Shown piece after piece: positions 3,419-44,558 of a DNA stretch of 64,000 bases. Under the pieces are notes generated by a model, which was given only the letters and a program-made list of their open reading frames with translations, ran no database searches and was not told where the DNA came from. Position 1 is the first letter of the stretch, and the number at the start of each line of letters is the position of its first letter. The stretch spans positions 32,657 through 96,656 of the forward strand of contig JAPPGV010000076.1 in the NCBI GenBank assembly GCA_028821235.1, written 5' to 3'. This DNA is from a bacterium. Its GTDB lineage: Bacteria > Actinomycetota > Acidimicrobiia > Spongiisociales > Spongiisociaceae. The translations under genes and the position numbers were made by a program.

Positions 3419-4249
3419 ATGACCGCCCCGCCCGCCACCAGCATGGAGATCGTCACCACCCGCGGCGGTGTCACCGAGTTGCGCCGCCGATGGGAAGCCG
3501 AGGATCCATGGGCCTCCCTCCTGATCGTCCACGGCTTGGCAGAGCACTCGGGGCGCTACCGGAACGTCGGCGCCCGGTTGGCGGCAGCCGGTATCGACAC
3601 CCACGCCTTCGACCTCATGGGCTTCGGAGCGTCAGGGGGGACCCGGGCCGACGTAGCGCACTGGCACACCTACCTGTTCCAGCTGTCGGACAACCTGGCC
3701 CGGTTGCCGGACCGTGGCCTTCCGAGAGTGGTGCTGGGCCACTCCGTCGGGGGCCTGCTCACCATCGACTACGCCATGTCGCGCCATCGCCAACCCGATC
3801 TGGTGGTCCTCAATGCGCCCGCCGTGGACGCGGTAGTGCCGGCCTGGAAACGGAGGGCCTCCCCAATCCTGGCCGGGCTGGTTCCCACCCTGACCCTCGC
3901 CAACCCGATAGACCCCTACCAGATATTCAGTGACCCCGCCACAACCGCCGGCTACCTCGCCGACCCACTGCTGGAACCCCGCACCACGGTCCGGCTGGGC
4001 GCCCACCTGCTCAGCGCCATGGACCGGGTCACCGCATCCGTCGACCGCTTCACCGCCCCCTGCCTGCTGACGCACGGCGCGGACGACACTCTCGTGCCAC
4101 CGGCAACGAGCGTCGCGCTGGGTCGGCTTCCCAACGTCGAGCGGCGACTGTACCCGGGCACCCGGCACGCCTCCCTGCAGGAGCCGGCAGGCGGGATGAT
4201 CCTTGATGACATCGTGGCATGGATCCGGGCCATGACCGGGAACTCCTAG
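3419..4249 (+). CDS. Alpha/beta hydrolase (lysophospholipase / monoacylglycerol lipase-like)
   Basis: Oxyanion HG (LLIVHGLAEHSGRY) and nucleophile elbow GHSVGG. Internal ATG at 3419 chosen as start. Confidence 0.8.
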   Translation: MTAPPATSMEIVTTRGGVTELRRRWEAEDPWASLLIVHGLAEHSGRYRNVGARLAAAGIDTHAFDLMGFGASGGTRADVAHWHTYLFQLSDNLARLPDRGLPRVVLGHSVGGLLTIDYAMSRHRQPDLVVLNAPAVDAVVPAWKRRASPILAGLVPTLTLANPIDPYQIFSDPATTAGYLADPLLEPRTTVRLGAHLLSAMDRVTASVDRFTAPCLLTHGADDTLVPPATSVALGRLPNVERRLYPGTRHASLQEPAGGMILDDIVAWIRAMTGNS

Positions 4250-4261
4250 AAGCCCGTCAGC

Positions 4262-5239
4262 ATGATGCGCCGCACAGCGACCGTACTGCCCGCCCGCGCC
4301 AGAGGAATCCTGCTGGTGGCCGCCGCCGGGACCCTGTGGAGCACCCTCGGCCTCGGCGTTCGGATCATGGACACCGCCACCATCTGGCAGATCCTGTTCT
4401 ACCGGGCCATCGCCCAGGTAATAGTGATAGGCGCCTGGGTGGCCATGCGGCGGGGACGCGGGTTCGCCCGCTCGTTCATGGACATCGGCGCCGACGGGGT
4501 CATCGCCGGCGCCTCCATCTCCATGTCCTCGATCGCGTTCGTGTACGCCCTCAGGCTCACCACGGTGGCGGAGGTGGTGTTCCTCTTCAGCATGGCGCCG
4601 GTCCTGGCGGGGCTGCTGGGATGGGTGGTGTTGCGAGACCCCATCACCCGGATCACCTGGCTGGCGATGGCGTTGGTGCTGGCCGGGATCGCCGTGATGA
4701 ACGGCCCGGCCGGGTCGGCGGGGGTCTCGGCGGGGACCTTCCTGGCCTTCCTGTCTGCACTCGGATTCGCTTCGTTCACGGTGCTGCAACGCCGCCGCAG
4801 GCATGTCGACATGTTGCCGGCCATCGCCGTGTCGGGCCTGATCACGGCGGCGGCCACGGCATGGCTCATCGGCGGCACCGTCCCGGGCCCCCGCGACCTG
4901 GCGGTCGCTTTCTGGCTGGGAGGAGTCGCCCTGGCCGGTGGGTTGGCGCTGTACACGGTCGGGGCGCGCTACGTGAGGCCTGCCGAGTCGGTGCTCATAT
5001 CGATGACCGAGGTCGTGCTGGCGCCGCTCTGGGTGTGGTGGATATTCGACGAGACGGCGGGCGTCGCCACCCTGGCGGGCGGTGCTGTCGTGCTTACCGG
5101 CGTGCTGATCCAGGCGCTGGGCAGCGAATCCAACTCCCGGGGCCGGCGGGGGCAGCCGGGAGACACGCCGGACCGGGCTACCCCTCGACGTCGCCTTCGC
5201 CGACGTCCGGAGCCGGCCGCAGCTCCTCCGCCGCCGTAG
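4262..5239 (+). CDS. DMT superfamily (EamA-like) transporter
   Basis: About ten hydrophobic segments in two halves, typical EamA duplication. Basic/Pro-rich tail. Confidence 0.75.
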   Translation: MMRRTATVLPARARGILLVAAAGTLWSTLGLGVRIMDTATIWQILFYRAIAQVIVIGAWVAMRRGRGFARSFMDIGADGVIAGASISMSSIAFVYALRLTTVAEVVFLFSMAPVLAGLLGWVVLRDPITRITWLAMALVLAGIAVMNGPAGSAGVSAGTFLAFLSALGFASFTVLQRRRRHVDMLPAIAVSGLITAAATAWLIGGTVPGPRDLAVAFWLGGVALAGGLALYTVGARYVRPAESVLISMTEVVLAPLWVWWIFDETAGVATLAGGAVVLTGVLIQALGSESNSRGRRGQPGDTPDRATPRRRLRRRPEPAAAPPPP

Positions 5240-5933
5240 CCACCTGGCCGACGAGAAGACCGAACTCGAAGGCAGCCGTCTCGAAGGCCAGCAGGCCGGC
5301 GCGACGGGTCTCCCCGGTGTCGGTCGACTCCAGGCCCTCCTGCATGGTCTCGGCCGCCGAGACGAGGGCGGCGACGGAGCCGGCCAGACCCTGCTGGAGT
5401 CGGGTATTGATCCCCGGTGGCGTAGCCACCCGAGCCAGCCGGGCGGGAAGGACGCTCACCCGGGAGACCAGAGCGCCCATCTGCTGGACCGCCGCGTCGT
5501 ATTCGAGGCTGCCGCTGTCCCACCCGTCGTTGATCTGCCGCCCGGTGTCCATTGCATCCGCCACGTCCAGGGCCAGCAGCGAGATCTCATCTGCGTACAA
5601 CCGCAGGGCCGCCGCGTCGCGCTCCACGGATGTGGTCTCGACGACAGGCTCCGGGGCCTCCGAGGAGTCACGGCTGGTCAGGGTTCGGAGCCCGAGCACC
5701 AGGGCGACCACCACCGCGAGGATCAGGCCGATCCGCCGCATGGAGCCCGGGCCGGAAGCGAAACGTCCCGGCCGGGTGGAGGGTTCGGGCCGTCCGATCC
5801 GGTGACGGCACGACCGGCAGATGGAGGTATCGGATATCCACTGCTGGCCGCACTGGGGACAGAAGCGCGGTTCGCCCTCCCGGGAGCCCGCCGCAGCCCG
5901 AGTCTCGCCGGACTCCGATCGGGGCGTGACCAT
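5178..5933 (-). CDS. Zinc-ribbon, single-pass membrane protein
   Basis: FCPQCGQQW...CRSCRH zinc ribbon, TM helix IGLILAVVVALVLGL, extracytoplasmic helical domain. Start at internal Met (5933) avoids overlap with mshD. Confidence 0.55.
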   Translation of the reverse strand: MVTPRSESGETRAAAGSREGEPRFCPQCGQQWISDTSICRSCRHRIGRPEPSTRPGRFASGPGSMRRIGLILAVVVALVLGLRTLTSRDSSEAPEPVVETTSVERDAAALRLYADEISLLALDVADAMDTGRQINDGWDSGSLEYDAAVQQMGALVSRVSVLPARLARVATPPGINTRLQQGLAGSVAALVSAAETMQEGLESTDTGETRRAGLLAFETAAFEFGLLVGQVATAAEELRPAPDVGEGDVEG

Positions 5934-6094
5934 CGCATCGGTAACCGGCACCTGCTCGGCTCGGCGGACTCCCGACCAGCGGGAGTCTCCCGGACGGCGG
6001 GTACCCTCCGGCGGCTTCCGATCATCCGACCAGGTCACGGCACTAACCCTCCGACGCCAACTCTCCCGGAGGATAGTTGTACCCTCGGGCGCCA

Positions 6095-6979
6095 ATGGAG
6101 GTACGTCCCGCTTTGCCCGGCGAACTCGGAGACCAGTTGGCGGATCTCATCGCCACGGTCACCGAGAAGCAGGGGGCCCCGCCTTTCGGAGAGGTCCTGC
6201 GAGCAGCCATGCGCGACCCCGACGGGGGAGGCCTCGGCTACGCCGCGCGGTCGCACGGAAGGCTCGTCTCGTACGCCTTCGCCGCCGCCAACCCCGACGG
6301 ACGGGTCTGGACGCTGGAGGTGGCCGACGGCTCCGGGCAGCAGGATCGGTTTCTGGGTGACGTGGCCCGCGGCCTGGATGCCGCCGGGATCGAGGAAACG
6401 GTCCTATGGCTCCACGCCCCGGACATCGAGCCGCCACCGGCGCTCTTCACCCATGAACGCGACCTGTACCGGATGGCGGTGAGACTTCCCGTTCCCGGCA
6501 TCGCCCGGCCCCCGGCGGGCGTCCGCTTCGCCGGCTTCGACGTCCGGCGGGATGCCCGGGCCCTGATCGAAGTCAACAACCGGGCCTTCGACGGTCATCC
6601 CGAGCAGGGCGAATGGTCGCTACAGGACCTGGAGCGGCGCACCTCGCTGCCGTGGTTCGATCCGCGCGGAGTACGTACCGGCTGGATCGACCACCGGCTG
6701 GTCGCATTCCACTGGACCAAGGTCCACGACACGCCGGCTCCCGACGGGGGCGCCCTGGGCGAGATCTACGTTCTGGCGGTCGATCCCGCCTTCCTCGGCC
6801 GGGGACTGGGCGGCGCCATCGCACTTGAAGGGCTCGACTACCTCTCGCGCCACAGGAGAGCCACCAGAGCGATCCTCTACGTGGACTCGGCCAACATCGC
6901 CGCTGTGAAGCTCTACCGGCGCCTCGGCTTCGCAACCGAACACACCGACCGCGCCTACCGAAGGGCTCGAAGTGGTTGA
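6095..6979 (+). CDS. mshD: Mycothiol synthase (tandem GNAT)
   Basis: Two GNAT halves. C-terminal block EIYVLAVDPAFLGRGLGGAI...LYVDSANIAAVKLYRRLGF is typical of MshD. Confidence 0.8.
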   Translation: MEVRPALPGELGDQLADLIATVTEKQGAPPFGEVLRAAMRDPDGGGLGYAARSHGRLVSYAFAAANPDGRVWTLEVADGSGQQDRFLGDVARGLDAAGIEETVLWLHAPDIEPPPALFTHERDLYRMAVRLPVPGIARPPAGVRFAGFDVRRDARALIEVNNRAFDGHPEQGEWSLQDLERRTSLPWFDPRGVRTGWIDHRLVAFHWTKVHDTPAPDGGALGEIYVLAVDPAFLGRGLGGAIALEGLDYLSRHRRATRAILYVDSANIAAVKLYRRLGFATEHTDRAYRRARSG

Positions 6980-7039
6980 CTCCGAGTGCTTGGCGGATTA
7001 CCGGATTACGATGGCGCCGCCACCTGCCCGGACCCGGTT

Positions 7040-8974
7040 ATGACTATTGAACTGATTCTCCCCGACCAAACCCTGATCCGCCACGAGGCCGGAGTGACCG
7101 GACTCCGGGTGGCCGGATCGATCGGCCCGCGCCTGGCCGCTGCGGCCGTCGCGGTCTCGGTCGACGGCGTCCTGATGGACCTGGAGCAGCCGATCCATGC
7201 CGGGGGGCGGTTCGCGGTAATCACCCCGGAGTCGGAGGAGGGCCGCCATGTCCTCCGTCACTCGGCCGCCCACATAATGGCCCAGGCGGTGCTCGGACTC
7301 TTCGAGGGCGCCACCTTCGCCATCGGACCCGCCATCACCGACGGCTTCTACTACGACTTCGACATCGGACGACCGTTCACACCCGACGACCTGGACGCCA
7401 TCGAAGAGGAGATGGAGCGCATCGTCGCGGCCGATCAGCCCTTCGTCCGGGAAGAGATGTCGCGGGCCGCGGGACTGGACCTGTTCCGCGAGCACCCCTA
7501 CAAGCTCGAGATAATCCGCTCGGTAGACGAGTCGGAGGTCGAATCCGGGGACGTGGTGTCCGTTTACCGGAACGAGGGGTTCGTGGACCTGTGCCGGGGC
7601 CCACACTTACCTTCAACCGGAAGGTTGAAGGCCTTCAAACTGACCCGCACAGCGGGGGCATACTGGCGGGGGGACGAGAAACGTCCCCAACTCCAGCGCA
7701 TCTACGGGACCGCCTGGGAGTCGGGCAAGGCGCTGCGGACCTATCTCCACCGGATCGAGGAAGCGGCACGCCGGGACCACCGCAAGCTGGGCCGCGAACT
7801 CGACCTGTTCTCGTTCCCGGACGGCCTCGGCCCGGGCCTGGCGGTATGGCACCCGAAGGGCGGGATGCTGAGGCGCCTCGCCGAGGACTACAGCCGGCGC
7901 ATCCACGAGGCCTTCGGCTTCGACTTCGTCTTCTCACCCCACCTGGCCAGGGCCGATCTCTGGCAGACGTCAGGCCACCTGGACTTCTATGCGGAGAACA
8001 TGTACCCCGGCCTGGAAATAGACCAGGGTGACGAGTACCGCGTGAAGCCCATGAACTGCCCGTTCCACGTTCTGATCTACCGCTCGGACGCCCGTTCGTA
8101 CCGGGACCTGCCCATGCGGCTCTCCGAGTTGGGCGCCGTGTACCGCTACGAGCGGTCGGGCGTGGTCCACGGCTTGCTCCGGGCGCGCGGGTTCACCCAG
8201 GACGACTCGCACACCTTCTGCACCCGCGACCAGGTCCCGTCCGAGCTGCAGCTCCACCTCGACTTCGTGCTCCGCCTCCTCCGGGACTTCGGCTTCGACG
8301 AATTCCAGGCCGATCTCTCGACCCGTCCGGGAGAGAAATGGGTCGGGGAACCGGAGTTGTGGGCGTTGGCCGAAGAGTCGCTCGGGGAAGCGCTCGCAAA
8401 GGCCGGCGTCCCGCACCGCGTGGCGGAAGGCGAGGGCGCCTTCTACGGCCCCAAGATCGACGTGCATGTCAATGACGCCATCGGGCGCCGCTGGCAGATG
8501 TCCACCATCCAGGTGGACTTCTCCCTCCCGGAGCGGTTCGGCCTCGAATACGTCACTCCCGCCGACACGAGGGAGCGGCCCGTCATGATCCACGCCGCCA
8601 AGTTCGGCTCGGTGGAGCGCTTCCTGGGCGTGCTGGTCGAGCACTACGCCGGCGCCATGCCGATGTGGCTGGCGCCCGTCCAAGCCGTGGTCGTGCCGGT
8701 CGCCGACCGTCATGACGGCTACGCCGGCCGGGTTGCGGGCAAGCTCCGGGACGGGGGCCTACGGGTCGAGTCCGCCTCGGGACCGGGCAAGCTGGGGGAG
8801 AAGATCCGCTCGGCCATCACGGGGAAGGTCCCGGCGATCCTGGTGGTGGGCGACCAGGATGCCGCAAACGACACGGTCGGCCTTCGCCTCCGGTCGGAGA
8901 AGAAAGAGAGGCGGGGCGTTCCGATGGACGAGGCACTGGCCGAGCTGGTCGATGCCGCCCGGCCTCCCGGCTGA
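7040..8974 (+). CDS. thrS: Threonine--tRNA ligase
   Basis: TGS-like N-terminus, HxxxH editing motif (HSAAHIMAQA), class II core (KPMNCPFH, YRYERSG, GFTQDDSH) and anticodon-binding C-terminus. Confidence 0.95.
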   Translation: MTIELILPDQTLIRHEAGVTGLRVAGSIGPRLAAAAVAVSVDGVLMDLEQPIHAGGRFAVITPESEEGRHVLRHSAAHIMAQAVLGLFEGATFAIGPAITDGFYYDFDIGRPFTPDDLDAIEEEMERIVAADQPFVREEMSRAAGLDLFREHPYKLEIIRSVDESEVESGDVVSVYRNEGFVDLCRGPHLPSTGRLKAFKLTRTAGAYWRGDEKRPQLQRIYGTAWESGKALRTYLHRIEEAARRDHRKLGRELDLFSFPDGLGPGLAVWHPKGGMLRRLAEDYSRRIHEAFGFDFVFSPHLARADLWQTSGHLDFYAENMYPGLEIDQGDEYRVKPMNCPFHVLIYRSDARSYRDLPMRLSELGAVYRYERSGVVHGLLRARGFTQDDSHTFCTRDQVPSELQLHLDFVLRLLRDFGFDEFQADLSTRPGEKWVGEPELWALAEESLGEALAKAGVPHRVAEGEGAFYGPKIDVHVNDAIGRRWQMSTIQVDFSLPERFGLEYVTPADTRERPVMIHAAKFGSVERFLGVLVEHYAGAMPMWLAPVQAVVVPVADRHDGYAGRVAGKLRDGGLRVESASGPGKLGEKIRSAITGKVPAILVVGDQDAANDTVGLRLRSEKKERRGVPMDEALAELVDAARPPG

Positions 8975-8985
8975 ACGTACTCCTC

Positions 8986-9002
8986 GAGCCCCCGCCGGGC
9001 TC
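8986..9002. terminator. Short GC hairpin between convergent thrS and the 9001-9480 gene
   Basis: GAGCCC-CCGCC-GGGCTC, 6-bp stem. No U-tract, so only a weak candidate. Confidence 0.3.
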
Positions 9003-9480
9003 AGCCGGGTTGCTCCAGTTGCTCCGTGTAGACCTCGTCGACGCTGTGCCCGCTGACCGCGTCGATCCGTACCAGTGCCCGCGCCAGCGGCGGGTCCTCC
9101 GCCGAGTACAGGATGAGGTTCCAGACCGGGCGCGACCGACCTCCTACGAACCCGAGGGCCGCCGAGGCGTGGCCCACCGGAAACGGAGCCACGGCTGCAG
9201 CCATGTCCAGCGCCCGCTCCTGGCCAATCACCAGCGGCCAGGCCGTGCGGTAATGAACGTAGGCGAGTGCCAGCAGCCCGATCGCGACCACCCACAGGCC
9301 GGCGCCGAGGTTGGCCAGCGCCCCGAACACGGCCAGCAGCCCCGCGGCCAGGTAGATGCGGGCGCCGATCCGGCGCCGGGACGGGGACGGGAACCGGTAC
9401 GGACCCAGCTGCCCGGAGTCGAGATCGTCCGGGACACCCGCTTCCCTGGCCACCTCGGCGGGAATGCGGATTCCCTCCAT
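9001..9480 (-). CDS. Two-TM membrane protein, translationally coupled to gltA
   Basis: Only the last 159 aa of ORF 9001-10434 look real (MEGIRIPAEV...). Two hydrophobic helices followed by a soluble domain. Its ATG overlaps the gltA stop (ATGA at 9477-9480 on the minus strand). Confidence 0.6.
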   Translation of the reverse strand: MEGIRIPAEVAREAGVPDDLDSGQLGPYRFPSPSRRRIGARIYLAAGLLAVFGALANLGAGLWVVAIGLLALAYVHYRTAWPLVIGQERALDMAAAVAPFPVGHASAALGFVGGRSRPVWNLILYSAEDPPLARALVRIDAVSGHSVDEVYTEQLEQPG

Positions 9481-10760
9481 CAACGCTCCGCCTGGGGCAC
9501 GTAGTCTCGTTGTGAGTAGCCGGTGTAGATCTGGCGCGGGCGCTTGAGCGGGGCGCTCGAGGACTCCCTCATCTCCCGCAGCTGCGCCAGCCATCCCGGT
9601 AGCCGGCCCAGGGCGAAAAGCACCGTGAACATCTCGCTGGGAAATCCCATGGCCTGGTAGATGATGCCCGAGTAGTAGTCCACGTTGGGGTAGATGCGCC
9701 GCCGGATGAAGAAGTCGTCCGCCAAGGCCTCCTGCTCCAACTTCAACGCCAGGTCCAGGAGAGGATTGCTCTGGTTGTCGAGCAGGGCGCGGGCGTGTCG
9801 CTTGATGATCAGCGCCCGGGGATCGAAGTTCCTGTAGACCCGGTGTCCGAAGCCCATGAGCCGGAAGGGGTCGTTCCGGTCCTTCGCCCGGTCCAGGAAC
9901 AGCCGGGTGTCCCCGCCCGCGGCCCTGATGTCCTCCAGCATCTCGATGACCCGCTGGTTGGCGCCGCCGTGGAGAGGACCCGACAGAGCAAGAACGCCGG
10001 CGCATATCGAGGAGAACAGGTCGGTCTGACCCGACCCGACCAGCCGGACCGCCGAGGTGGAGAGGTTCTGGCCGTGGTCGGCGTGGAGGATCAGCAACGC
10101 CTCCATCGCCTGGACATGGGCCGGGTTGGGTTGGTAACCCGAGCCGCCGGGGTTGAAGGTCATGTTGAGGAAGTCGGCCGCGTAGCCGAGTCCCGGGTCG
10201 GGATCGATATAGACCCGGTCCCGGTCGCTGCGGTGCGACCAGGCCACCAGCGCAGGCATCATCGCCACCAGGCGGGTAGCGGCCAGCCGGTTGGCCTCCA
10301 CCTCTCCCGATCCTCCCGTTCTCGGGTAGTAGGCGCCCAGCAGGGCGATCGCGGTGGCGATCTTCTGCATCGGATGGGTACCGGCCGGGAACGCCTCCAG
10401 GACCTTCTCGAACCCGTCGGGCAGGGCTCGGCACTCCGCGATACGGCTCTCGAAGGCCGCCATCTGATCGGGGGTGGGAAGCTCGCCCCGGTCCAGCAGG
10501 TAGGCCACCTCCAGGAACGTGGAGTTCCCGACCAGCTGGTCCACCGGATAGCCGCGGTAGCGAAGGATCCCTGCTTCGCCGTCGATGAACGAGACCTCGC
10601 TGGAGGTCTCGGCGGTGTTCCCGTATCCGGGATCGAGGGTGACCATCCCGGTGGCGGCGCGGAGACCCCGGATGTCGAGTGCCCGCTCGCCCTCCGTTCC
10701 CGATGCGATCAGTAGGTCGATCGCGTCCTCACCATCGACGCGGATTGTCGCCTTCTCCAT
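9480..10760 (-). CDS. gltA: Citrate synthase
   Basis: Citrate synthase signature GFGHRVYRNFDPRA and full-length family pattern. Confidence 0.95.
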   Translation of the reverse strand: MEKATIRVDGEDAIDLLIASGTEGERALDIRGLRAATGMVTLDPGYGNTAETSSEVSFIDGEAGILRYRGYPVDQLVGNSTFLEVAYLLDRGELPTPDQMAAFESRIAECRALPDGFEKVLEAFPAGTHPMQKIATAIALLGAYYPRTGGSGEVEANRLAATRLVAMMPALVAWSHRSDRDRVYIDPDPGLGYAADFLNMTFNPGGSGYQPNPAHVQAMEALLILHADHGQNLSTSAVRLVGSGQTDLFSSICAGVLALSGPLHGGANQRVIEMLEDIRAAGGDTRLFLDRAKDRNDPFRLMGFGHRVYRNFDPRALIIKRHARALLDNQSNPLLDLALKLEQEALADDFFIRRRIYPNVDYYSGIIYQAMGFPSEMFTVLFALGRLPGWLAQLREMRESSSAPLKRPRQIYTGYSQRDYVPQAER

Positions 10761-10778
10761 GTGCTGCGCTCGTCCCTC

Positions 10779-12827
10779 CTACTCGGCCGCGGCCTTGGTC
10801 GCCGCCACCACCCGCTGCACTTCCTGCGGGGGAGCGGGCTCGTAGCGGGCGAACTCGATGTCGAAGGATCCCCGCCCCCCGGTCATCGACCGCAGATCCA
10901 CCGAGTAGCGCTGCACCTCTGCCATCGGGACCTCGACATTCAGGACCCGGCTCCGCCCGTCGGCGTCCATCCCGAGCACCCGCCCCCGCTTGGCGTTGAT
11001 GTCACCGATCACGTCGCCCATGTAGTCCTCGGGCACCCGGATGGTGACCACGGCGATGGGTTCGAGGATGGTAGCCCGCAAATCGGGAGCCGCCGCCCTG
11101 ACGGCCATGATCCCCGCCATCCGGAAACTGAGCTCATCGGAGTCGACGGAGTGGAACTTACCGTCGTAGACGGTGGCCCGGACATCGATGACGCGGTAGC
11201 CGGCCAGGATGCCCCGCTCGAGGGCCTCCCGGATCCCCTTGTCGACCGCCGGGATGAGGCTCCGGGGAATGGACCCGCCCTTGATCTGATCCACGAACTC
11301 GTAACCCTCGCCTCGCCGGTTGGGCTCGAACCTCACGTACGCCACGCCGAACTGGCCCCGCCCGCCCGACTGCTTCTTGTGCTTGCCCTCCACGTCGGCC
11401 CGCCCCTGGATGGTCTCCCGGTACGGGATGCGCGGCACGCCCGTGTCCACCTCGACCCCGAAGAGCCGCGCCACCTTGGCCAGCGTGACGCTGACATGGG
11501 CTTCCCCGAGGCCTGAGAGGACCGTCTCGCTGGTCTCGGCGCGTCGCTCCACCATGATGGTGGGATCCTCCTCCTGGATGCGGGCCAGGGCGGTCGAGAG
11601 CTTGTCCTCGTCCTGGGTGGAGCGGGGCGATACCGTCACCTCGTGTACCGGGCGGGGCACCCGGACCGGTGCGATCTCGGTAGCGCTTCCGGGGGCCCTC
11701 AGGGTGTCTCCGACCCGCAGGCGGTCGAGCTTGGCCACCGATCCGATGGACCCGACCGTCGCTTCCGGCAGCCCGGTGTGCTCCTTACCCTGGAGCGAGA
11801 AGAGGCTGGACATCTTGAGCTTGTCCCCGCCGGGGTTCTCGAGCACGGTGTCGGGCTTGAACGAGCCCGAGAAGACCCGGAAGGTATTGACCCGGCCCAC
11901 GTACTGATCCCCTGACGTCTTGAACGTGTAGGCCACCGCCGGGCCGTCCGCATCGGGGGCCAGTTCGCCGCTCAAGGTCGCGGGCATGGTCCGTTCCAGG
12001 GGATCGGGGCCGAAGTCGACCACGAACTCGGCCAGGGTGTCGATTCCCACCAGCGAGCCCGCGGAACCCACCAGGACCGGGAAGATGTCTCCCGCCAGCA
12101 TCCCGTCGTGGATGACCTCCACCATGCGTTCCGCCGACGGTTCCTCGCCCTCGAAGTAGGCCTCGAGCAGATCGTCGTCGGTCTCCACCACCGATTCCAC
12201 GAGCGCTGACCGGGTCTCTTCGAAAGCCTCGGCCACCTCGGCAGGAACGTCGGTAGCCGTGCCCTCCGTCCGGCCCGATTCGTAGCGGTAGGCGCGACCC
12301 GACACCAGCCTGACCACCCCGCTCAGGCTCTGCTCCTCGCCGATCGGTATCTGGATGGGAGCGATGCGCTTGCCGAAGGCCTCCACGAGTTCGTCCAGGG
12401 TGCGGGAGAACGAGGCGCGGTCCCGGTCGAGCTTGTTGACGAACACCACCCGGGGAATGCCCTCCAGGCGGGCGGCCTCCCAGAGGATCTCGGTCTGTAC
12501 CTCGACTCCGTCCACGGCGGAGACCACGAACACGGCCAGGTCCACGGCTCGCAACGCCGCCAGCGCCTCACCTACGAAGTCGGCGTACCCGGGGGTGTCG
12601 ATGAGGTTGACCCGGGTCCCGTTGTGATCGAAGGACGCCACCCCGAGCCCCAGCGAGCTCTGGCGCTCGATCTCCTCGGGCTCATGATCCATGACCGTGT
12701 TGCCGGCATCTACGGAACCGACGCGGTTGATCTCGCCGGCGTTGAAGAGGAGGGCCTCGGCGAGGGAGGTCTTACCGGAACCTCCGTGGCCGAACAGGCC
12801 CACGTTTCGAATGTTCTCCGGTCGCAT
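10779..12827 (-). CDS. Elongation factor G-like GTPase (EF-G paralog)
   Basis: G1 GHGGSGKTS, G3 DTPGYADF, NKLD, then domains II-V in order. Start at Met14 (12827) gives a typical short N-terminus. Confidence 0.9.
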   Translation of the reverse strand: MRPENIRNVGLFGHGGSGKTSLAEALLFNAGEINRVGSVDAGNTVMDHEPEEIERQSSLGLGVASFDHNGTRVNLIDTPGYADFVGEALAALRAVDLAVFVVSAVDGVEVQTEILWEAARLEGIPRVVFVNKLDRDRASFSRTLDELVEAFGKRIAPIQIPIGEEQSLSGVVRLVSGRAYRYESGRTEGTATDVPAEVAEAFEETRSALVESVVETDDDLLEAYFEGEEPSAERMVEVIHDGMLAGDIFPVLVGSAGSLVGIDTLAEFVVDFGPDPLERTMPATLSGELAPDADGPAVAYTFKTSGDQYVGRVNTFRVFSGSFKPDTVLENPGGDKLKMSSLFSLQGKEHTGLPEATVGSIGSVAKLDRLRVGDTLRAPGSATEIAPVRVPRPVHEVTVSPRSTQDEDKLSTALARIQEEDPTIMVERRAETSETVLSGLGEAHVSVTLAKVARLFGVEVDTGVPRIPYRETIQGRADVEGKHKKQSGGRGQFGVAYVRFEPNRRGEGYEFVDQIKGGSIPRSLIPAVDKGIREALERGILAGYRVIDVRATVYDGKFHSVDSDELSFRMAGIMAVRAAAPDLRATILEPIAVVTIRVPEDYMGDVIGDINAKRGRVLGMDADGRSRVLNVEVPMAEVQRYSVDLRSMTGGRGSFDIEFARYEPAPPQEVQRVVAATKAAAE

Positions 12828-12916
12828 CCTCCTCCGCTTCCTTGTGGGGCATCCGAGTGTAGGCAATCATACGATGCTTCCCGTCTGTGGTAGCTTCCCG
12901 AGCGGAAGGAGCCACC

Positions 12917-13516
12917 GTGATCGAAGTCTGGGCCCGCGAGCATGTCGACAAAGTGGTGGCGCCTATCGGACGTGGCCTGGCCCGCCTCGGGGTGCGACCC
13001 GCCCACCTGACCGTGACGGGGCTGGTGGTCACCCTGGTCGGATCGACTCTGCTCGCCACTGGCAGCGTGGTCATCGGCGCCCTGGTCATCCTGGGCGGCT
13101 CGGCTCTCGACGGGTTGGACGGGTCGGTTGCCCGGGCGTCGGGATCGGACTCACCCCGGGGTGCGCTGCTCGACTCCGTATTCGATCGTATCGGCGAGAC
13201 GGCCATGTTCGCGGCCTGCTCCTTCTGGCTCACCTCACGGCTCTCACCCGACGAGGGCGACCCTGCCCTCGTCGTGCTCTGCGTCCTGAGCCTGGGCGCA
13301 TCTCTGGTCATCTCCTACCTGCGGGCCAAGGCCGACATCGGGCGGGTGGAGGGTCGGGGCGGCTTGATGGGCCGGGCGGAGCGGGTCATCCTCTTCGCGG
13401 CCGGGTTCATCTTCGATCAGGTCACGGTCATGCTGTGGCTGATGGCCATCCTCACCTGGCTAACCGTCTTCCAGCGGTTCTTCAAGACCTGGCGGCAGCT
13501 GTCAGCGGGTGACTGA
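12917..13516 (+). CDS. pgsA1: CDP-alcohol phosphatidyltransferase (phosphatidylinositol phosphate synthase type)
   Basis: Motif DGLDGSVAR...G..LDSVFDRIGE. GTG at 12917 is preceded by GGAAGGAG. Sits in the conserved pgsA1-patA-pimA order. Confidence 0.85.
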   Translation: MIEVWAREHVDKVVAPIGRGLARLGVRPAHLTVTGLVVTLVGSTLLATGSVVIGALVILGGSALDGLDGSVARASGSDSPRGALLDSVFDRIGETAMFAACSFWLTSRLSPDEGDPALVVLCVLSLGASLVISYLRAKADIGRVEGRGGLMGRAERVILFAAGFIFDQVTVMLWLMAILTWLTVFQRFFKTWRQLSAGD

Positions 13517-38530: not shown

Positions 38531-38596
38531 GCTCCCAGGCTACCCAGTCGCGGAGCGCGGACTCAGGCAGCGCCAGTTCGTCGACCCGCGCAACCA

Positions 38597-39772
38597 TCAC
38601 TTAGGGCCGGCGTCATGGAGGCGCGCCCACGGCATGAGTGTCCCGTCCGAGCGGAACTGGAGATCGTCACCCCCGTACACCACCATGATGTCGGATGGGC
38701 GAGGTATGGAGGCCATGTGCCGCTGGACTGTCCTTCCGGCGCCGAAGAAGCTGGAGGACGCCGTGATCCCCGACTTGGCTTCCACGAGGGTGATCCCGTC
38801 CGGACGGTCGATCAGCAGATCGATCTCGACCCCGTTGCGATCCCGATAGAACGAGAGCCCGCCCGGCTCGCCCAGGTTGGCCCGGTGCTTGGCGATCTCG
38901 GAAACGACCCATGTCTCGAATATCGCACCCCGTAGCGGATGGGAACGCAGGTGTTCGGGCGTCCGGATGCCGAGGAGCCAGCAGACCAGGCCCGTGTCGT
39001 AGAAATGCAGTTTGGGCATCTTGACGAGCCGCTTGCGCACGTTCGAGTGGAAGGCTTGAAGCCGGAACACTACGAACCCCGCTTCGAGGACCGACAGCCA
39101 CGCCTTCGCGGTCGGCTGTGATACTCCGCAGTCGCCGGCCAGGGACGAGTAATTGAGCAACTGGGCGGTGCGTCCGGCGCACAGTTGAACGAACCGTTGG
39201 AAGGTGGCGAGATCTCCGATGCTCCTGATGGATCGGACGTCGCGTTCTATGTAGGTCGCGACGTAGGATCGGAGCCAGTCGGACGGGTCGAGGCCGCGGT
39301 CGAATATTCGGGGATAGGAGCCTGCCAGCAGTGACTCCTCAAGACCTGTCGGGTGACGGGGAAAGCGCACGATCTCCCCACGGGTCAGGGTGAACAGATT
39401 GTGGAGGGCTGTCCGACCGGCCAGCGACTGGCTTACCGCCTCCAGCAAAGCGAGATTCTGCGATCCGGTCAGGATCCAGCGTCCGGGCTCCGGATCGTCA
39501 TCGATGAGGCCTTGCAGGTACGACAGGATATGCGGTGCGCGCTGCACCTCGTCGATCACGGCGCCCTCGGATAACCCGGCCAGGAAACCACGAGGATCCG
39601 CTCTAGCGAACGCGTGCGTGTCAGGAGCTTCGAGCGTCACGTAAGCATGATCGGGGAAGAGCGTGCGGCACAGGGTGGTCTTACCGCTCTGGCGCGGTCC
39701 GGTCAGAGTGACGGACGGCATCGTCCGCGCTGCCGCGAGTACCTGCGGCGCCAGGTCCCTGTCGATCAGCAT
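38597..39772 (-). CDS. AAA ATPase (AAA_14 + DUF4143 architecture)
   Basis: Walker A GPRQSGKTT, Walker B-like AVIDEVQ, and a C-terminal DUF4143-like region (FYDTGL...). Confidence 0.8.
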   Translation of the reverse strand: MLIDRDLAPQVLAAARTMPSVTLTGPRQSGKTTLCRTLFPDHAYVTLEAPDTHAFARADPRGFLAGLSEGAVIDEVQRAPHILSYLQGLIDDDPEPGRWILTGSQNLALLEAVSQSLAGRTALHNLFTLTRGEIVRFPRHPTGLEESLLAGSYPRIFDRGLDPSDWLRSYVATYIERDVRSIRSIGDLATFQRFVQLCAGRTAQLLNYSSLAGDCGVSQPTAKAWLSVLEAGFVVFRLQAFHSNVRKRLVKMPKLHFYDTGLVCWLLGIRTPEHLRSHPLRGAIFETWVVSEIAKHRANLGEPGGLSFYRDRNGVEIDLLIDRPDGITLVEAKSGITASSSFFGAGRTVQRHMASIPRPSDIMVVYGGDDLQFRSDGTLMPWARLHDAGPK

Positions 39773-39841
39773 GCACAGCAGATTACAACCATGCTAGGCT
39801 AATTCAAAGTTTAATTTTGAAATAGCTTGGACTCGTGGCCG

Positions 39842-40006
39842 CTATGCGCTGTCTTCTTGCCAGCGGAGGACGGGGCGGCGGGCGGCAGTGTCTTCTGCCA
39901 CAAGACACCTGAGTCCCTCTTGGCCTCGTCCGCGTTGACAAATTGCGCGGCCTCTCCATGAGTCTGGGACATCGGCCTGGGTGTATTGCTCGACCACTCG
40001 GTTCTG
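39842..40006 (-). pseudogene. Orphan remnant of a gcvPB 3' end
   Basis: Minus-strand frame ends ...EDTAARRPVLRWQEDSA* compared with intact GcvPB ...DEATAARRPVLRWTSEGQ*. No gene body. Only patchy nucleotide similarity upstream of the 31-nt core. Confidence 0.55.
39860..39890. repeat. Direct repeat, left copy (att-like): CCAGCGGAGGACGGGGCGGCGGGCGGCAGTG
   Basis: 29 of 31 nt identical to 43095-43125, same orientation. Confidence 0.8.
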
Positions 40007-40110
40007 TTAGCCCCCTTCGCGCGCAGCCCGGCCACCGTGATTGCCGCTCGCTTGCATTCTCTAGGCTGCTATGCCGTACCTGACCGCCGACTGAGTCAAG
40101 GACCGGAGAA

Positions 40111-43056
40111 GTGGCTAAGGCCGAGCGGGAACTGACCTGGACAACCTCGCCGCCATCTAGGAGAGCGTTGCGTAGGCAAGGCTTCGCCGTGTTCCACTTT
40201 GCCGAGGTGCGGAACAGGCACATCGTACATGCTCGCTCAGCGACGGTCACACGTGACACGCTTGAGAACGCTGCGGCAAGCATCTTGAGATTGATGGACG
40301 GCCACGAGCGCATCGCGATTCTCGGAGTACCCGCTCGAACAAATGGGGACGTCGATGACATCTACTCTTTTCTGGTCGAGCCATCGTTCCGCCGCGACCT
40401 CACGCTACTTCTCGGCGTCGACAGGTCGTTCGACGAACTCGATCCGGTAGAACTCACGACACCGGAAATGGGATATCCATGGAGCCTCGAACGGCTTCAG
40501 TATCTAATGCGGACCTACGCCCGGAACCAGCAAAGCGATGGGATACCGCCCCTCACGCCGATCGAAGCGATCCTGCTCGGTGCTATGCGTAGTCACGGCT
40601 TGACGCCGCAGGCACAGTACGGCATCATCAAGTACCGGGTTGACTTCGCTTTCCCCGCCCAGCATCTAGTCGTCGAATGCGACGGACGCGGATGGCATGA
40701 TGCGGAGCGCGATGCCCGGCGAGACGCGCAACTCGAAGCTCTAGGCTGGAAGACCCTTCGCTTCACAGGCTCGGAGATATACCGCCGGGCGTCTGCAGTC
40801 ACGAAACAGATAGTCTCCGAGCTTGAGACGCGATCACACGTCACGACTTACACAGAACAACCCCGGGAAGCACGTCGCGCCTGGTGGCACCGAATCCTCG
40901 ATTTCTTCCTGGGCCGCCACCAGCCGCAAACCTCACTGCCCCCTCCATCGACACCTGCTTCGGAGCGCAGCGTGCCGGCCTGGAAGGCCCATCTCGACGC
41001 CGACCAGCGCCGCGCGGTTGACGGCCACGAAGGAGTAATACAGGTCATTGCGCCGGCCGGCTCCGGCAAGACCACCACCATGATCGCCCGGGTCCAGGAA
41101 CTCTTCGCGAGGGGGGCACTTGCTAACCGAATCCTGTGCACCACCTTCAACCGAGATACCCGTGTTGACCTAGAGGCTCGCCTTGAGCCGAAGGGTCTCG
41201 CCAATGTCCAAGTGAAGACGTTCCATGCGCTCGGAAGGGCCATCCTCGACCAGGAAGGCCTTCTTCGTTCGGAAATCGGCTCCATCAGTCATGGTCAGTG
41301 GCGTCGGATCGCGAAGCTAGCCAAGGATGCGGTCGAGGATGGTGTCTGGATTGACGCTCCGGTAGCGGCCGAAGTAGTGAGCAATTACAAACTATCTGAA
41401 ATGTGGGACCCGCTGACGGCTCGGCAACGAGCAGCAAACAGCTTCTACAGGACTGCCGCCGAAATCTACACCCTTTATGAGGAGCATCTGGAAGCTGCGG
41501 GACGCAATGACTTCGATGACCTGATATTCCGAGCCGTTGAGCATTTGAAGAGCAATGATGCTGCTAGACGGCGCTGGCAGGATAGATGGGAACACGTGCT
41601 AGTTGACGAGTACCAGGACATTGAGCCAGCGCAGGAGCTACTGATCCGTTTCGTAGCGGCACCGGAGGATTCTCTCTTCACCGTAGGCGACGAGGATCAA
41701 TGCATTTACACATGGCGGCGGGCCAGCGTCGAGCGCATTGTGATGTTGGACACAAAGTACCCGGGTCTTCAGCGCGTCGTGTTGAGCACCTCGTATCGCT
41801 GCCCACCCGTGGTCACCGACGCCGCCCGGAGTCTTATCAGCAACAACAGACGTCGTTTCCCCAAGGAGATTCTACCGAGTCCCAACCGGAAGGGGTTAGG
41901 TGAGATTGAGCTTCGGATTACCGAGAGCCTTGCCGCGGGTGCTCATGAGACCACGACCTTGCTGAAGGAACATGACGGGCCACCCGGCGAGATAGTGGTG
42001 TTGGCGCGCACCAGCCGTTTGCTACGCGCCGTTGTACGCGCATGTGCAGAACAGGGGGTAGCTGTCAATGCGCCACGTCAGTCGCTGCGCCTCACTGATT
42101 CGGAGAAGACCGTGCTCGCCTATCTGCGAGTTGTGTCGTCGCCTAGGAGCGCCCAGGCCGAAGACATCAAACGTTCTTTTCGTGTCCCCAACCGCTACCT
42201 CCGCGACGGCGACCAGCACCGGATTCGGCAAGCTCTCGGCGATCGGCTCTCCTTCGCCGGGGCGGTGGAATCGATCGGCGCTACCGGTTCAGAGGAGTGG
42301 CGCACCAGGGGACAGCGGGAATGGGCACAGCTATGTCAGGAACTCAGGACCGCTGCTGATGCCACCGCCGCCATGAAGCTCCTTCGAACTTCCGGGGGGC
42401 TCGACCGTCACTACATGAGCGTCGACCAGTTGTCCCGCCACGATCAGTACGAGGTAGAAGCGCTAGAGGACATCCAGGACGCAGCAACAGGCCGGAGCCT
42501 GTTCGAGTTGGTCACACACCTCGAAAGCCGCGCGTTGTTGCTAAACCAGGATCGGAACAGCCAAGGAGGCAAGGACGCGATCGAGCTAAACACAATCCAT
42601 CGGGCAAAGGGACGCGAGTGGGACACGGTCATTCTGTTCGGCGCCGACGATGATCAGCTTCCCCACCGTCGAACGGTACTCGAAGCTGAGAGCGAGGAAG
42701 AGTTGGAGGTAGCCATAGAGGACGAGCGACGCCTGGCCTATGTCGCCATCACGCGAACCCGCCACAAGCTCGTGCTTGTCACGACCGGAGTTCCCAGCCC
42801 GTACCTGCGTGAGGCAGGTATCACTCAGTCGGCTGGAGCCCTTCCAACACGCGCCAGCCTCCTTGAGTCGCGTGGATCATCGCATCCCTCGCGGGACTCT
42901 GCCTCACCGACAGTTCAAGCGCAGTATCGCACCATATGCCATAACTGCGGTCGGCCCATCGAGCCCGGAAACCCGATCAGGAGATTTGGTGACGGCTGGG
43001 CACACGACCAGTGTGACCGTCACAGGCCCCGTCTCCGTCACGAAGCTCCGTTCTGA
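40111..43056 (+). CDS. Fusion protein: unknown N-terminal region + DUF559 (Vsr-like) endonuclease domain + UvrD/Rep SF1 helicase + C-terminal Cys/His zinc-ribbon-like motif
   Basis: DUF559: YRVDFAFPAQHLVVECDGRGWH...LGWKTLRF. Helicase motifs APAGSGKTT, VLVDEYQD, GDEDQCIYTWRRA, SYRC, IHRAKGREWD, YVAITRTRHKL. C-terminus: CHNCG...HDQC. The GTG start is uncertain. Confidence 0.85.
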   Translation: MAKAERELTWTTSPPSRRALRRQGFAVFHFAEVRNRHIVHARSATVTRDTLENAAASILRLMDGHERIAILGVPARTNGDVDDIYSFLVEPSFRRDLTLLLGVDRSFDELDPVELTTPEMGYPWSLERLQYLMRTYARNQQSDGIPPLTPIEAILLGAMRSHGLTPQAQYGIIKYRVDFAFPAQHLVVECDGRGWHDAERDARRDAQLEALGWKTLRFTGSEIYRRASAVTKQIVSELETRSHVTTYTEQPREARRAWWHRILDFFLGRHQPQTSLPPPSTPASERSVPAWKAHLDADQRRAVDGHEGVIQVIAPAGSGKTTTMIARVQELFARGALANRILCTTFNRDTRVDLEARLEPKGLANVQVKTFHALGRAILDQEGLLRSEIGSISHGQWRRIAKLAKDAVEDGVWIDAPVAAEVVSNYKLSEMWDPLTARQRAANSFYRTAAEIYTLYEEHLEAAGRNDFDDLIFRAVEHLKSNDAARRRWQDRWEHVLVDEYQDIEPAQELLIRFVAAPEDSLFTVGDEDQCIYTWRRASVERIVMLDTKYPGLQRVVLSTSYRCPPVVTDAARSLISNNRRRFPKEILPSPNRKGLGEIELRITESLAAGAHETTTLLKEHDGPPGEIVVLARTSRLLRAVVRACAEQGVAVNAPRQSLRLTDSEKTVLAYLRVVSSPRSAQAEDIKRSFRVPNRYLRDGDQHRIRQALGDRLSFAGAVESIGATGSEEWRTRGQREWAQLCQELRTAADATAAMKLLRTSGGLDRHYMSVDQLSRHDQYEVEALEDIQDAATGRSLFELVTHLESRALLLNQDRNSQGGKDAIELNTIHRAKGREWDTVILFGADDDQLPHRRTVLEAESEEELEVAIEDERRLAYVAITRTRHKLVLVTTGVPSPYLREAGITQSAGALPTRASLLESRGSSHPSRDSASPTVQAQYRTICHNCGRPIEPGNPIRRFGDGWAHDQCDRHRPRLRHEAPF

Positions 43057-43076
43057 GTCTTTGGTAACCCCTAGGG

Positions 43077-44558
43077 CTACTGCCCCTCCGAGGTCCAGCG
43101 GAGTACGGGGCGGCGGGCGGCTGTGGCCTCGTCGAGGCGGCCTATGGGTGCGGTCCAGGGGGCATGGTGCAGGGTGTCGGGATCGCTCTCGGCCTCCTTC
43201 GCGACCGAGATGAGGGCTTCGACCAGCGCTTCGATCGCCTCGGGAGGCTCGGACTCGGTGGGCTCGATCATCAGGGCCTCCTCGACGATCAACGGGAAGT
43301 AGACCGTCGGCGGGTGGAAACCGTGGTCGATCAGGCGCTTGGCGATGTCGTAGGTTCGCACCCCGAGCTCCCGGCGCTGGCGGGAGCCGGAGAACACCAC
43401 CTCATGCAGCACCGGACGGTCGTACGGCAGGTCGTAGTGGCCATGGAGCAGGGCGCGCACGTAGTTGGCGTTTAGCACCGCCTGGCCGGAGGCGGCGCGC
43501 AGGCCGTCGAGCCCCAACGCCCGCATGTACGCATAGGCGCGGACCAGGACCGCCGCGTTGCCCTGGAACTGCTGGAGCCGGCCGATGCTGCGCGCGGGCG
43601 CGACCAGGTGCACGAGACCGTCATCGCCCTCCTCCACCATCGGCGTAGGCAGGTACAGGGCCAGTTCCTCGGAGCACAATACGGGTCCGGCGCCCGGGCC
43701 GCCGCCACCGTGGGGGGTGCTGAAGCTCTTGTGGAGGTTTAGGTGGACGACATCGAAACCCAGGTCCCCGAAGCGCACGCGGCCCATGATCGCGTTGAAG
43801 TTCGCCCCGTCCCCGTACAGGTACCCGCCGGCGTCATGGATGAGCTCGGCCACCTCCTCGATGCCTTGCTCCCACAGCCCGAGGGTGTTGGGCGCGGTGA
43901 CCATGACGGCCGCCACGGTCTCGTCGAGCTCTCGCTCGATCGTGGCCCTGTCGAGCGAGCCGTCGGCGCCGGTCGGGATCTGGGTGACCTTGAATCCCGC
44001 CATGGTCGCCGTCGCCGGGTTGGTGCCGTGGGCCGAGTCCGGAACGAGGATGCGGCGGCGGGTCTCGAGCTCTCCCCGATCCTCGAGCGCGCGAGCCACC
44101 ATGAGAACACCTGCCAACTCTCCGTGTGCGCCCGCGGCAGGGGCGAAGCTGACATTCGGAAGGCCGGTGAGCTCGCCCAGACCACGACCCAGCTCCAACT
44201 GGACCCACAGCGTGCCCTGTACGTCCTCCTCCCGGGCCTGGGGATGTGCCCGGGCGAACCCCGGAAGGGAGGCCACCGTGTCGTTGACCTTCGGGTTGTA
44301 CTTCATGGTGCAGGAGCCCAGCGGATACGTACCGGAGTCGATGCCGAAGTTCCGCGCCGACATTGCCGTGTAGTAGCGCACCAGCCCTCCCTGGCTGAGC
44401 TCGGGCAATCGCACCGAGTCGCGCAGCAGGTGATCGTCCGGCAGAGGAGCCTCCTCCCCCGCCCACGAGGGCACGTCGACCGCTCGACGGCCCGGTTCTC
44501 CGCGGTCGAAGCTCAGGCGCGCTCCGAAGTCGGCTACGCCAGGTCCGGAGCCGCTCAC
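43077..44558 (-). CDS. gcvPB: Glycine dehydrogenase (decarboxylating), subunit 2
   Basis: PLP-lysine block NLHKSF and family-wide pattern. 4-nt overlap with gcvPA. Confidence 0.95.
   Translation of the reverse strand: MSGSGPGVADFGARLSFDRGEPGRRAVDVPSWAGEEAPLPDDHLLRDSVRLPELSQGGLVRYYTAMSARNFGIDSGTYPLGSCTMKYNPKVNDTVASLPGFARAHPQAREEDVQGTLWVQLELGRGLGELTGLPNVSFAPAAGAHGELAGVLMVARALEDRGELETRRRILVPDSAHGTNPATATMAGFKVTQIPTGADGSLDRATIERELDETVAAVMVTAPNTLGLWEQGIEEVAELIHDAGGYLYGDGANFNAIMGRVRFGDLGFDVVHLNLHKSFSTPHGGGGPGAGPVLCSEELALYLPTPMVEEGDDGLVHLVAPARSIGRLQQFQGNAAVLVRAYAYMRALGLDGLRAASGQAVLNANYVRALLHGHYDLPYDRPVLHEVVFSGSRQRRELGVRTYDIAKRLIDHGFHPPTVYFPLIVEEALMIEPTESEPPEAIEALVEALISVAKEAESDPDTLHHAPWTAPIGRLDEATAARRPVLRWTSEGQ
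43095..43125. repeat. Direct repeat, right copy (inside the gcvPB 3' end): CCAGCGGAGTACGGGGCGGCGGGCGGCTGTG
   Basis: See 39860-39890. Confidence 0.8.

Follow-up and report, generated by a model that had tools for sequence, protein, structure and literature searches.

We identified a 981-amino-acid (aa) nuclease-helicase fusion protein in a 64,000-nucleotide stretch of an actinobacterial genome of the family Spongiisociaceae (contig JAPPGV010000076.1, positions 32,657 to 96,656; the whole stretch is referred to as the window), and we propose, with a probability of roughly 0.6, that it is a horizontally acquired single-protein defense effector against phages or other invading DNA. A Vsr-like DUF559 nuclease domain and a UvrD-type helicase core were joined in one chain with two further conserved parts, and the catalytic motifs of both enzymes were intact. 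The gene lay in foreign DNA that had been inserted precisely at the 3' end of gcvPB; its homologs were patchily distributed and frequently had defense-island neighborhoods. We rated the fusion as a stand-alone enzyme whose family, within the class of nuclease-helicases, had not been described before; in the literature, we found no paper on a DUF559-UvrD defense protein. It is analogous to Nhi, Hna, and Hhe and is a member of none of them. An earlier reading made from the letters alone (the sequence-only reading) had put it forward as a candidate single-protein defense factor, and the defense-island contexts, the patchy spread, and the intact motifs lend support to that suggestion.

Domain organization of the fusion protein

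In the six-frame list of open reading frames (ORFs), the fusion gene extended from a GTG start to a TGA stop. The gene and its parts, with the evidence for each part, were as follows.

40111..43056, + strand: fusion gene, 981 aa, GTG to TGA
40111..40530, + strand: N-terminal domain, aa 1-140 (AlphaFold2 (AF2), phmmer; no Pfam family)
40546..40830, + strand: DUF559/MTES_1575 Vsr-like endonuclease domain, aa 146-240 (Pfam, PDB 3hrl, PADLOC)
40987..42786, + strand: PcrA/UvrD/Rep-type superfamily 1A (SF1A) helicase core, aa 293-892 (Pfam, NCBIfam, PDB, Foldseek)
42916..43020, + strand: C2HC zinc-ribbon-like tail, aa ~936-970 (conservation, AF2, phrog_1581)

The public database call for this gene begins at M62 and gives a protein of 920 aa. 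Homologs of 970-1000 aa spanned 98-100% of the 981-aa form, and residues 8-60 were conserved among homologs (W10, L20, G24, and R48); therefore, the GTG start was favored over M62. A word-indexed search of 5.8 billion proteins found approximately 100 full-length homologs with the DUF559 and UvrD architecture at 37-82% identity, and all four parts of the fusion were kept across them. The AF2 model, calculated from a 33-sequence alignment, had a mean predicted local distance difference test (pLDDT) score of 84.8. All conservation figures given here refer to an alignment of 33 full-length members of the fusion family.

The nuclease domain matched Pfam DUF559 (2.7e-13; 50.2 bits against a cut-off of 20.6) and MTES_1575 (8.2e-13; 48.7 bits against a cut-off of 38.2), both at aa 157-238. 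With scores above the gathering thresholds and the acidic core retained, it belongs to the DUF559/MTES_1575 family. It contained a TPIE helix and the motifs YRVDFAF and VVECDGRGWHD, in which D178 (in YRVDFAF), E189, D191, G192, R193, W195, D197, D201, and R204 were invariant, and H196 was conserved in at least 90% of the members. Comparison with the DUF559 structure PDB 3hrl gave an E value of 7.4e-5 with the Y-x-VDF ... VE-x-DG core aligned, and the match to true Vsr (1cw0 and 1vsr) was marginal, with an E value of about 1. The PADLOC matches confined to this domain were PDC-S37 (9e-10) and Hhe (7e-4); two proteins annotated as anti-phage, Hhe and ProA, and the candidate PDC-S37 also contain the DUF559/MTES_1575 nuclease. 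The definition of MTES_1575 is that of a 'novel Vsr-REase' attached to superfamily 1 (SF1; SF-I in that source) helicases in conflict systems (PMC3710099). As judged from the alignment, the nuclease domain of the fusion is intact and not degenerate. The sequence-only reading had named decay of the DUF559 catalytic residues as a sign to look for against its proposal, and the acidic residues proved invariant.

The helicase core matched Pfam UvrD-helicase (PF00580; 1.3e-48, aa 296-550) and UvrD_C (PF13361; 2.1e-25, aa 738-891), each above the gathering score. The Walker A motif GSGKT (317-321) and the DEYQD motif (499-503; D499-E-x-Q-D503) were invariant. A phmmer search of the PDB with the fusion helicase gave PcrA, Rep, and Mycobacterium tuberculosis UvrD1 at 5.7e-46, 1e-43, and 2e-41, respectively, and Foldseek placed the AF2 model on PcrA 1qhg with an E value of 7.7e-35 and a TMt of 0.76. 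Domains, motifs, and fold thus assign the protein to the UvrD/PcrA/Rep-type SF1A superfamily. The NCBIfam equivalog models gave 242 bits for pcrA (TIGR01073; 9e-72), 192 bits for UvrD, and 222 bits for Rep, against cut-offs of 911, 1144, and 951, respectively. These scores, far under the cut-offs, indicated that the fusion helicase forms a paralogous family distinct from the housekeeping enzyme. Because ordinary UvrD paralogs were kept elsewhere in the same genome, and the fusion was absent from 40 related genomes (see below), we rejected its identification as a housekeeping PcrA/UvrD/Rep ortholog.

No Pfam family matched aa 1-150 even at E <= 10, in agreement with the sequence-only reading, which had recognized no motif in this region. 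The AF2 model showed an alpha/beta domain with a parallel sheet and a pLDDT of >90 over most of aa 8-135. The domain carried a conserved EPxFRRD motif and had neither a GK[ST] motif nor a Walker A lysine. Foldseek searches of PDB and BFVD gave a weak P-loop/AAA+ resemblance to DnaI (5he8), IstB (5bq5), and phage DnaC, with template modeling scores of about 0.5, E values of at least 3e-3, and 9% identity. A phmmer search with the domain returned 93 matches among 1.84 billion representative proteins, and nearly all of them were the N-termini of the same 880-1000-aa helicases; by this search, the N-terminal domain is specific to the helicase family of the fusion. Some relatives had the N-terminal domain and the helicase without DUF559 (for example P0111, 884 aa), which indicated that the N-terminal domain belongs with the helicase and that the nuclease was inserted between them.

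The C-terminal tail had the pattern C943-x2-C946 ... W963-x-H965-x2-C968, and C943, C946, W963, H965, and C968 were each found in at least 90% of the members. AF2 predicted a small beta-hairpin zinc-ribbon-like module (pLDDT 74-87). No Pfam family matched the last 80 residues, for which there were only sub-threshold zinc-finger matches, and the sole significant relative of the tail was phrog_1581 (1.7e-8), a phage family of unknown function. The Vsr/DUF559-type core, the complete set of UvrD/Rep motifs, and the Cys/His tail described in the sequence-only reading were each borne out by the family matches and the conserved residues.

Distribution and genomic neighborhoods of the homologs

The fusion was absent from 40 genomes related at the level of genus, family, or order, in which the best matches covered the helicase only, at about 32% identity. 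Among 185,579 GTDB species representatives (one genome per species), the family, with or without DUF559, was found in about 20, which were spread over five phyla. The family-bearing groups were Acidimicrobiia, Fibrobacteraceae, Dehalococcoidia, Gemmatimonadales, and Krumholzibacteriia, and the names Caldilineaceae and Solirubrobacteraceae also occurred among the homologs from the protein search.

Clear defense islands surrounded the homolog in five of nine independent contexts (L027, L028, L035, L036, and L037), and two others (L021 and L024) were suggestive; this recurrence was judged qualitatively on the nine contexts, without a background rate. Apart from L021, which is described below, the neighbors were as follows.

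L028: BrxA, BrxB, BrxE, kinase, NYN, DUF6361-DEAD
L027: 1031-aa N6_N4 methyltransferase, ResIII-S24, REase-ARP, HNH_2, KAP NTPase
L035: GmrSD, AAA_15/23, SNF2 helicase
L036: type I R-like protein with SLFN_AlbA_2, GmrSD_N, rve, RelA_SpoT
L037 (complete Acidimicrobiia chromosome): Hhe-like 1818-aa AAA_11/12-MTES_1575-DUF3320 protein, HsdM, AbiEii
L024: HEPN_Swt1, AlpA, two giant helicases
L029: SH3 and CHAT proteins only
L038: HipA

No neighbors were shared among the loci of the homologs or those of the sister form lacking DUF559, and synteny was not conserved. The lack of a constant neighbor gene across the contexts fits a one-gene system. Uniformly syntenic chromosomal repair genes, which the sequence-only reading had set against its own proposal, were not what we found: the homologs were patchy, absent from the 40 relatives, and often located in defense islands.

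The same observations bear on whether the fusion could be an accessory DNA-repair or recombination enzyme, combining Vsr-like nicking with UvrD unwinding at host mismatches, lesions, or stalled forks. Both Vsr and UvrD act in repair, the fusion helicase is nearest to PcrA, UvrD, and Rep, and AddA, RecB, and AdnB show that fusions of a UvrD-type motor and a nuclease can serve repair. However, a repair role appeared improbable in view of the absence of the fusion from the 40 relatives, the ordinary UvrD paralogs in its own genome, its location on an island of foreign composition, the lack of synteny among the homologs or the sister form together with the frequent defense-island neighborhoods, and the marginal match to true Vsr.

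Several variants of the family were observed in these searches. The sister form, with the N-terminal domain and the helicase but without DUF559, occurred in L040-L055 (Krumholzibacteriia, Gemmatimonadales, and others) as proteins of 600-890 aa. A Fibrobacteraceae relative of 1501 aa (L051, 154-4659) had about 1000 extra N-terminal residues, and relatives of about 1200 aa (P0039-P0054) had a C-terminal extension of about 300 aa. In L037, the homolog (9989-12968, + strand) was located head-to-head with the Hhe-like 1818-aa helicase (3953-9409, - strand), which carries the same MTES_1575 nuclease. The ORF of this homolog was only 864 aa while the tblastn match ran on, and the gene is probably frameshifted or truncated. 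In L123, a gene at 4448-5197 (- strand), convergent with a 62%-identical homolog, encodes a protein ending in ...YRVLLTRGRDGFIVFVPP; this C-terminus appears similar to those of DUF2075 (Nhi-type) helicases.

Insertion of the cassette at the 3' end of gcvPB

The fusion gene was carried on a cassette inserted into the 3' end of gcvPB and was adjoined by an ATPase gene. The features of this locus were as follows.

39896..43094, no strand assigned: inserted cassette (comparison with G002, GC content)
43095..43130, - strand: direct-repeat copy 1, encoding ...EATAARRPVLRW of the functional gcvPB, with the cassette-supplied tail TSEGQ* at 43094-43077
39842..39895, - strand: direct-repeat copy 2 (repeat 39860-39895) with the displaced native tail QEDSA* (39859-39842)
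43077..44558, - strand: gcvPB (glycine dehydrogenase subunit 2), the insertion target
38597..39772, - strand: AAA_14 and DUF4143 ATPase, the neighbor of the fusion (Pfam; PADLOC candidate PDC-S01, 2e-101)

The two 36-nt direct repeats were identical at 32 of 36 positions and had a period of 3,235 bp; the number of such pairs expected by chance was 0. The repeat is the 3'-end segment of gcvPB that encodes ...EATAARRPVLRW. After this core, the functional gcvPB ran into a new 5-codon tail provided by the insert, and the distal repeat copy was followed by QEDSA*. Since gcvPB of congeners ends in RWQEDS[TE]* or RWQDGS*, it is the distal copy that carries the native tail, displaced from gcvPB, and the new tail comes from the insert. 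Apart from precisely the cassette segment, the congener G002 (L030) and the window were collinear, at 96.4% identity, and the single gcvPB core of G002 matched both copies in the window. Thus, G002 shows the exact empty site for the cassette. Among 28 genomes of the family, two gcvPB core copies were found only in G000.

The GC content of the cassette was 0.603 compared with 0.69 in the flanks, and its GC content at third codon positions was 0.67 compared with 0.82-0.87 in GGT and the gcv genes. This difference in composition and the empty site in G002 indicated that the cassette is foreign DNA, precisely inserted and horizontally acquired. The fusion was the sole ORF with homologs in 39896-43094, which held no other credible gene. 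The sequence-only reading, in which the fusion was the sole cargo of an integrated low-GC insert, is therefore confirmed by the composition, the repeats, and the empty site. The GC content of the window in 2-kb bins fell to 0.60-0.65 over about 20-44 kb, compared with 0.68-0.70 elsewhere, which puts the cassette at the border of a larger accessory region.

No recombinase was seen inside the cassette, and serine recombinases were not searched for. Phage_integrase had no match in the 64-kb window, and 13 tyrosine-recombinase genes were located elsewhere in the genome. The cassette therefore showed two features of an integrative element, target direct repeats and an empty site in a relative, and not the third, a recombinase of its own. 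A scan of the cassette for promoters and terminators gave nothing beyond chance. A 7-bp inverted repeat, GTGTCTT-N7-AAGACAC, abutted the distal core copy at 39889-39909 of the window and was not conserved in L021, and TGGCAGAAGACA ahead of the distal core resembled TGGCAAGAAGACA beyond it; the inverted repeat and this likeness may have been left by an earlier excision or may have arisen by chance.

A second occurrence was found on the metagenome contigs L021-L023, which carried a fusion protein of 81% identity (about 85% identity in DNA) at the same GGT-gcv locus, with flanks 94-98% identical to those of the window. The gene order there was gcvPB - DUF4143 - fusion - GGT, compared with gcvPB - fusion - DUF4143 - GGT in the window. 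This cassette, too, was bounded by gcvPB core copies, of which the locus had three (7748-7795, about 11034-11078, and 12357-12404), and it supplied a gcvPB tail of its own, IPGLE*; beyond the distal core came the type-I native tail, a hairpin, and GGT. A repeat-bounded single-gene unit has thus been placed at least twice in the gcvPB hotspot. A metagenome search for further cassettes at the gcvPB core gave five loci, each single-copy. Neither flanking repeats nor a gcvPB-like core was found at six more distant homologs (L024, L027, L028, L029, L122, and L123), indicating that the repeats are a property of the gcvPB locus and not of the protein family; flanking repeats were accordingly rejected as a family trait.

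The possibilities for the placement of the cassette are a trans-acting site-specific recombinase, homology-facilitated integration via the 36-nt core, and, least likely, the protein itself. In the last case the nuclease-helicase would be a selfish mobility factor that helps its own 3.2-kb cassette to insert into, or home to, the 3' end of gcvPB. Such a factor would account for a cassette with repeats and without a recombinase, and it agrees with the bracketing of a single gene by 36-nt target repeats with the gcvPB reading frame restored, with the diverged copy (85% identity), also bounded by repeats, at a second position of the same locus in L021-L023, and with the lack of an integrase in the 64-kb window. 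However, the six more distant loci had no repeats or gcvPB-like core, homing by double-strand-break repair creates no direct repeats, no known transposase or recombinase has the fusion architecture, and the 13 tyrosine-recombinase genes of the genome could act in trans. We consider a mobility function very unlikely. The sequence-only reading had offered a homing factor as the alternative to defense; the repeat-bounded cassette at the gcvPB locus speaks for that suggestion, which found no support beyond this locus.

The DUF4143 ATPase and the fusion were both absent in G001 and G008, the ATPase was found without the fusion in G002 and G006, and it was also present in G007. The ATPase gene is itself accessory at the gcvPB hotspot. 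It could be supposed that the fusion is half of a two-gene, PDC-S01-like system with this ATPase, as the two genes were adjacent both in the window and in L021-L023 and the ATPase matched PDC-S01. However, their orientation was divergent in the window and convergent in L021, their order differed too, the ATPase occurred without the fusion in G002 and G006, and a DUF4143 gene was located beside the fusion in 0 of 7 other contexts. A two-gene system is thus hardly probable, and the ATPase was rejected as an obligate partner.

Further details of the ATPase gene were observed at this locus. In L021, the DUF4143 gene was located between two gcvPB core copies (11100-12404). In the window (38531-39859) and in G002, the distal core was missing, and the last ~15 codons were unlike those of the L021 copy. 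G009 kept a QEDSE* tail and the distal junction without the DUF4143 gene, and this junction looks like a deletion scar of the gene. A palindrome, TTCAAAGTTTAATTTTGAA, was located at 39802-39820 of the window in the AT-rich spacer immediately upstream of the DUF4143 start; it was kept in G002, G006, and L021 and could be an operator or a terminator.

A broader and rather doubtful interpretation is that the gcvPB 3' end in this sponge-associated actinobacterial lineage serves as a dedicated attachment site, at which single-gene defense cassettes without a recombinase (the nuclease-helicase, perhaps also the DUF4143 ATPase) insert, stack up next to each other, and change order, each with a replacement gcvPB tail. 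Such a site would amount to an integron-like cassette bank that has neither attC nor IntI and depends on a trans-acting recombinase or, less likely, on the nuclease-helicase.

Proposed mechanism of the putative defense effector

PcrA/UvrD motors translocate in the 3'-5' direction on single-stranded DNA (ssDNA), and PD-(D/E)xK/Vsr-fold domains cleave DNA with Mg2+. In a defense effector of the proposed kind, the UvrD-type motor would load onto intermediates of foreign replication or recombination at their ssDNA gaps, nicks, or 3' tails and translocate with ATP, and the tethered DUF559 nuclease would cut the DNA under unwinding. The N-terminal domain and the zinc ribbon may supply recognition of a target or trigger, or autoinhibition. 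By analogy, the mechanism would follow, in logic, a one-chain AddA/RecB-like or Nhi/Hna/Hhe-like scheme; it would share its logic with Nhi, Hna, HmaA, and Hhe (PMC11232893) and, in repair, with AddA/RecB. In this scheme, we only infer the substrates and polarity of the enzyme, a coupling between cutting and unwinding, the defense phenotype, and the sparing of self DNA.

Several points weigh against a role in defense. No PADLOC v2, NCBIfam, or PHROG model spanned the whole fusion, and the PADLOC and NCBIfam matches were to generic UvrD (GajB-type) or nuclease-only models. The association with defense genes is qualitative on nine contexts, without a formal background rate, and two of these contexts (L029 and L038) held little or no defense content. 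For DUF559 proteins, nuclease activity is largely deduced from the fold, and the defense role of the fusion family is a prediction from sequence comparison.

Single-protein nuclease-helicases (Nhi, Hna, Hhe, and HmaA) are an emerging class of bacterial immunity in which the sensing of infection is poorly understood. Among the analogous systems, the trigger to which Nhi, Hna, and Hachiman respond is phage SSB and replication proteins. PcrA/UvrD is the best-understood helicase scaffold; with a Vsr-like nuclease and two accessory domains, both small and conserved, attached to it, the fusion would be a tractable model of a motor gating a nuclease. A defense role of the fusion, if true, would also assign a definite function to DUF559, a widespread domain. 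For the movement of defense genes among strains of uncultured symbionts, the cassette offers a clear-cut example: its bounds are precise, it has no recombinase, and it lies at the 3' end of a housekeeping gene.

Comparison with known systems

The cassette resembles att-flanked integrase-less (cis-mobilizable) elements and integron cassettes in that it has one gene, no recombinase, and bounds formed by target repeats, and in that it lies stacked, in variable order, beside a further accessory gene at a single hotspot. It differs in that its repeats reproduce the 3'-terminal sequence of gcvPB and are not attC hairpins, in that no IntI or other integrase is nearby, and in that only two occurrences are known.

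Gabija also uses a UvrD-like motor and a nuclease in defense, and the best PADLOC matches of the fusion were GajB UvrD-type models (4.7e-61). However, Gabija is a two-protein complex with the OLD/TOPRIM nuclease GajA. The GajB structure in the PDB matched aa 475-585 of the fusion only, at about 1e-7, and no GajA-like gene adjoined the fusion, the neighbors of which were the DUF4143 ATPase and gcvPB; membership in Gabija was rejected. AddA, RecB, and AdnB, like the fusion, have a nuclease of the PD-(D/E)xK superfamily in covalent linkage with a UvrD-type SF1A motor, and the fold matches had E values of 1e-25 to 1e-20. These proteins differ from the fusion in having a C-terminal RecB-type nuclease, forming hetero-oligomers, and being encoded by conserved housekeeping genes. 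NCBIfam scores of 70-88 bits against cut-offs of about 700-860 excluded the fusion from the AddA/RecB families.

Hhe is the anti-phage protein in which an MTES_1575/DUF559 nuclease and an SF1 helicase are likewise combined in a single chain, and an Hhe-like gene directly adjoined the fusion homolog in L037. Unlike the fusion, Hhe has about 1800 aa, a DUF4011 helicase, AAA_11/AAA_12 (Upf1-like) domains, a nuclease on the C-terminal side, and DUF3320. The fusion scored 23 bits against a cut-off of 2000 with the Hhe model NF042953, at aa 147-246 only, and the PADLOC Hhe match was confined to the nuclease, so that the fusion was not assigned to Hhe.

Nhi (Bari et al. 2022) is a protein of about 610 aa with an HsdR-like N-terminal nuclease and a DUF2075 SF1 helicase (PMC11232893). 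Nhi and the fusion are alike in that a stand-alone gene encodes a single chain with the nuclease toward the N-terminus and the SF1 helicase toward the C-terminus, and the logic given for Nhi is to recognize and degrade phage replication intermediates (PMC11232893). The fusion differs in its length of 981 aa, its Vsr-like DUF559 nuclease, its PcrA/UvrD SF1A core with 1B and 2B domains, its extra N-terminal domain, and its zinc ribbon. Membership in Nhi was rejected, as the fusion had no DUF2075 match at E <= 0.1 and no HsdR-type nuclease, and Nhi was outside the 25 best PADLOC families. Of the Nhi-type likeness claimed in the sequence-only reading, the nuclease-helicase logic therefore stands, and the domain families are different ones.

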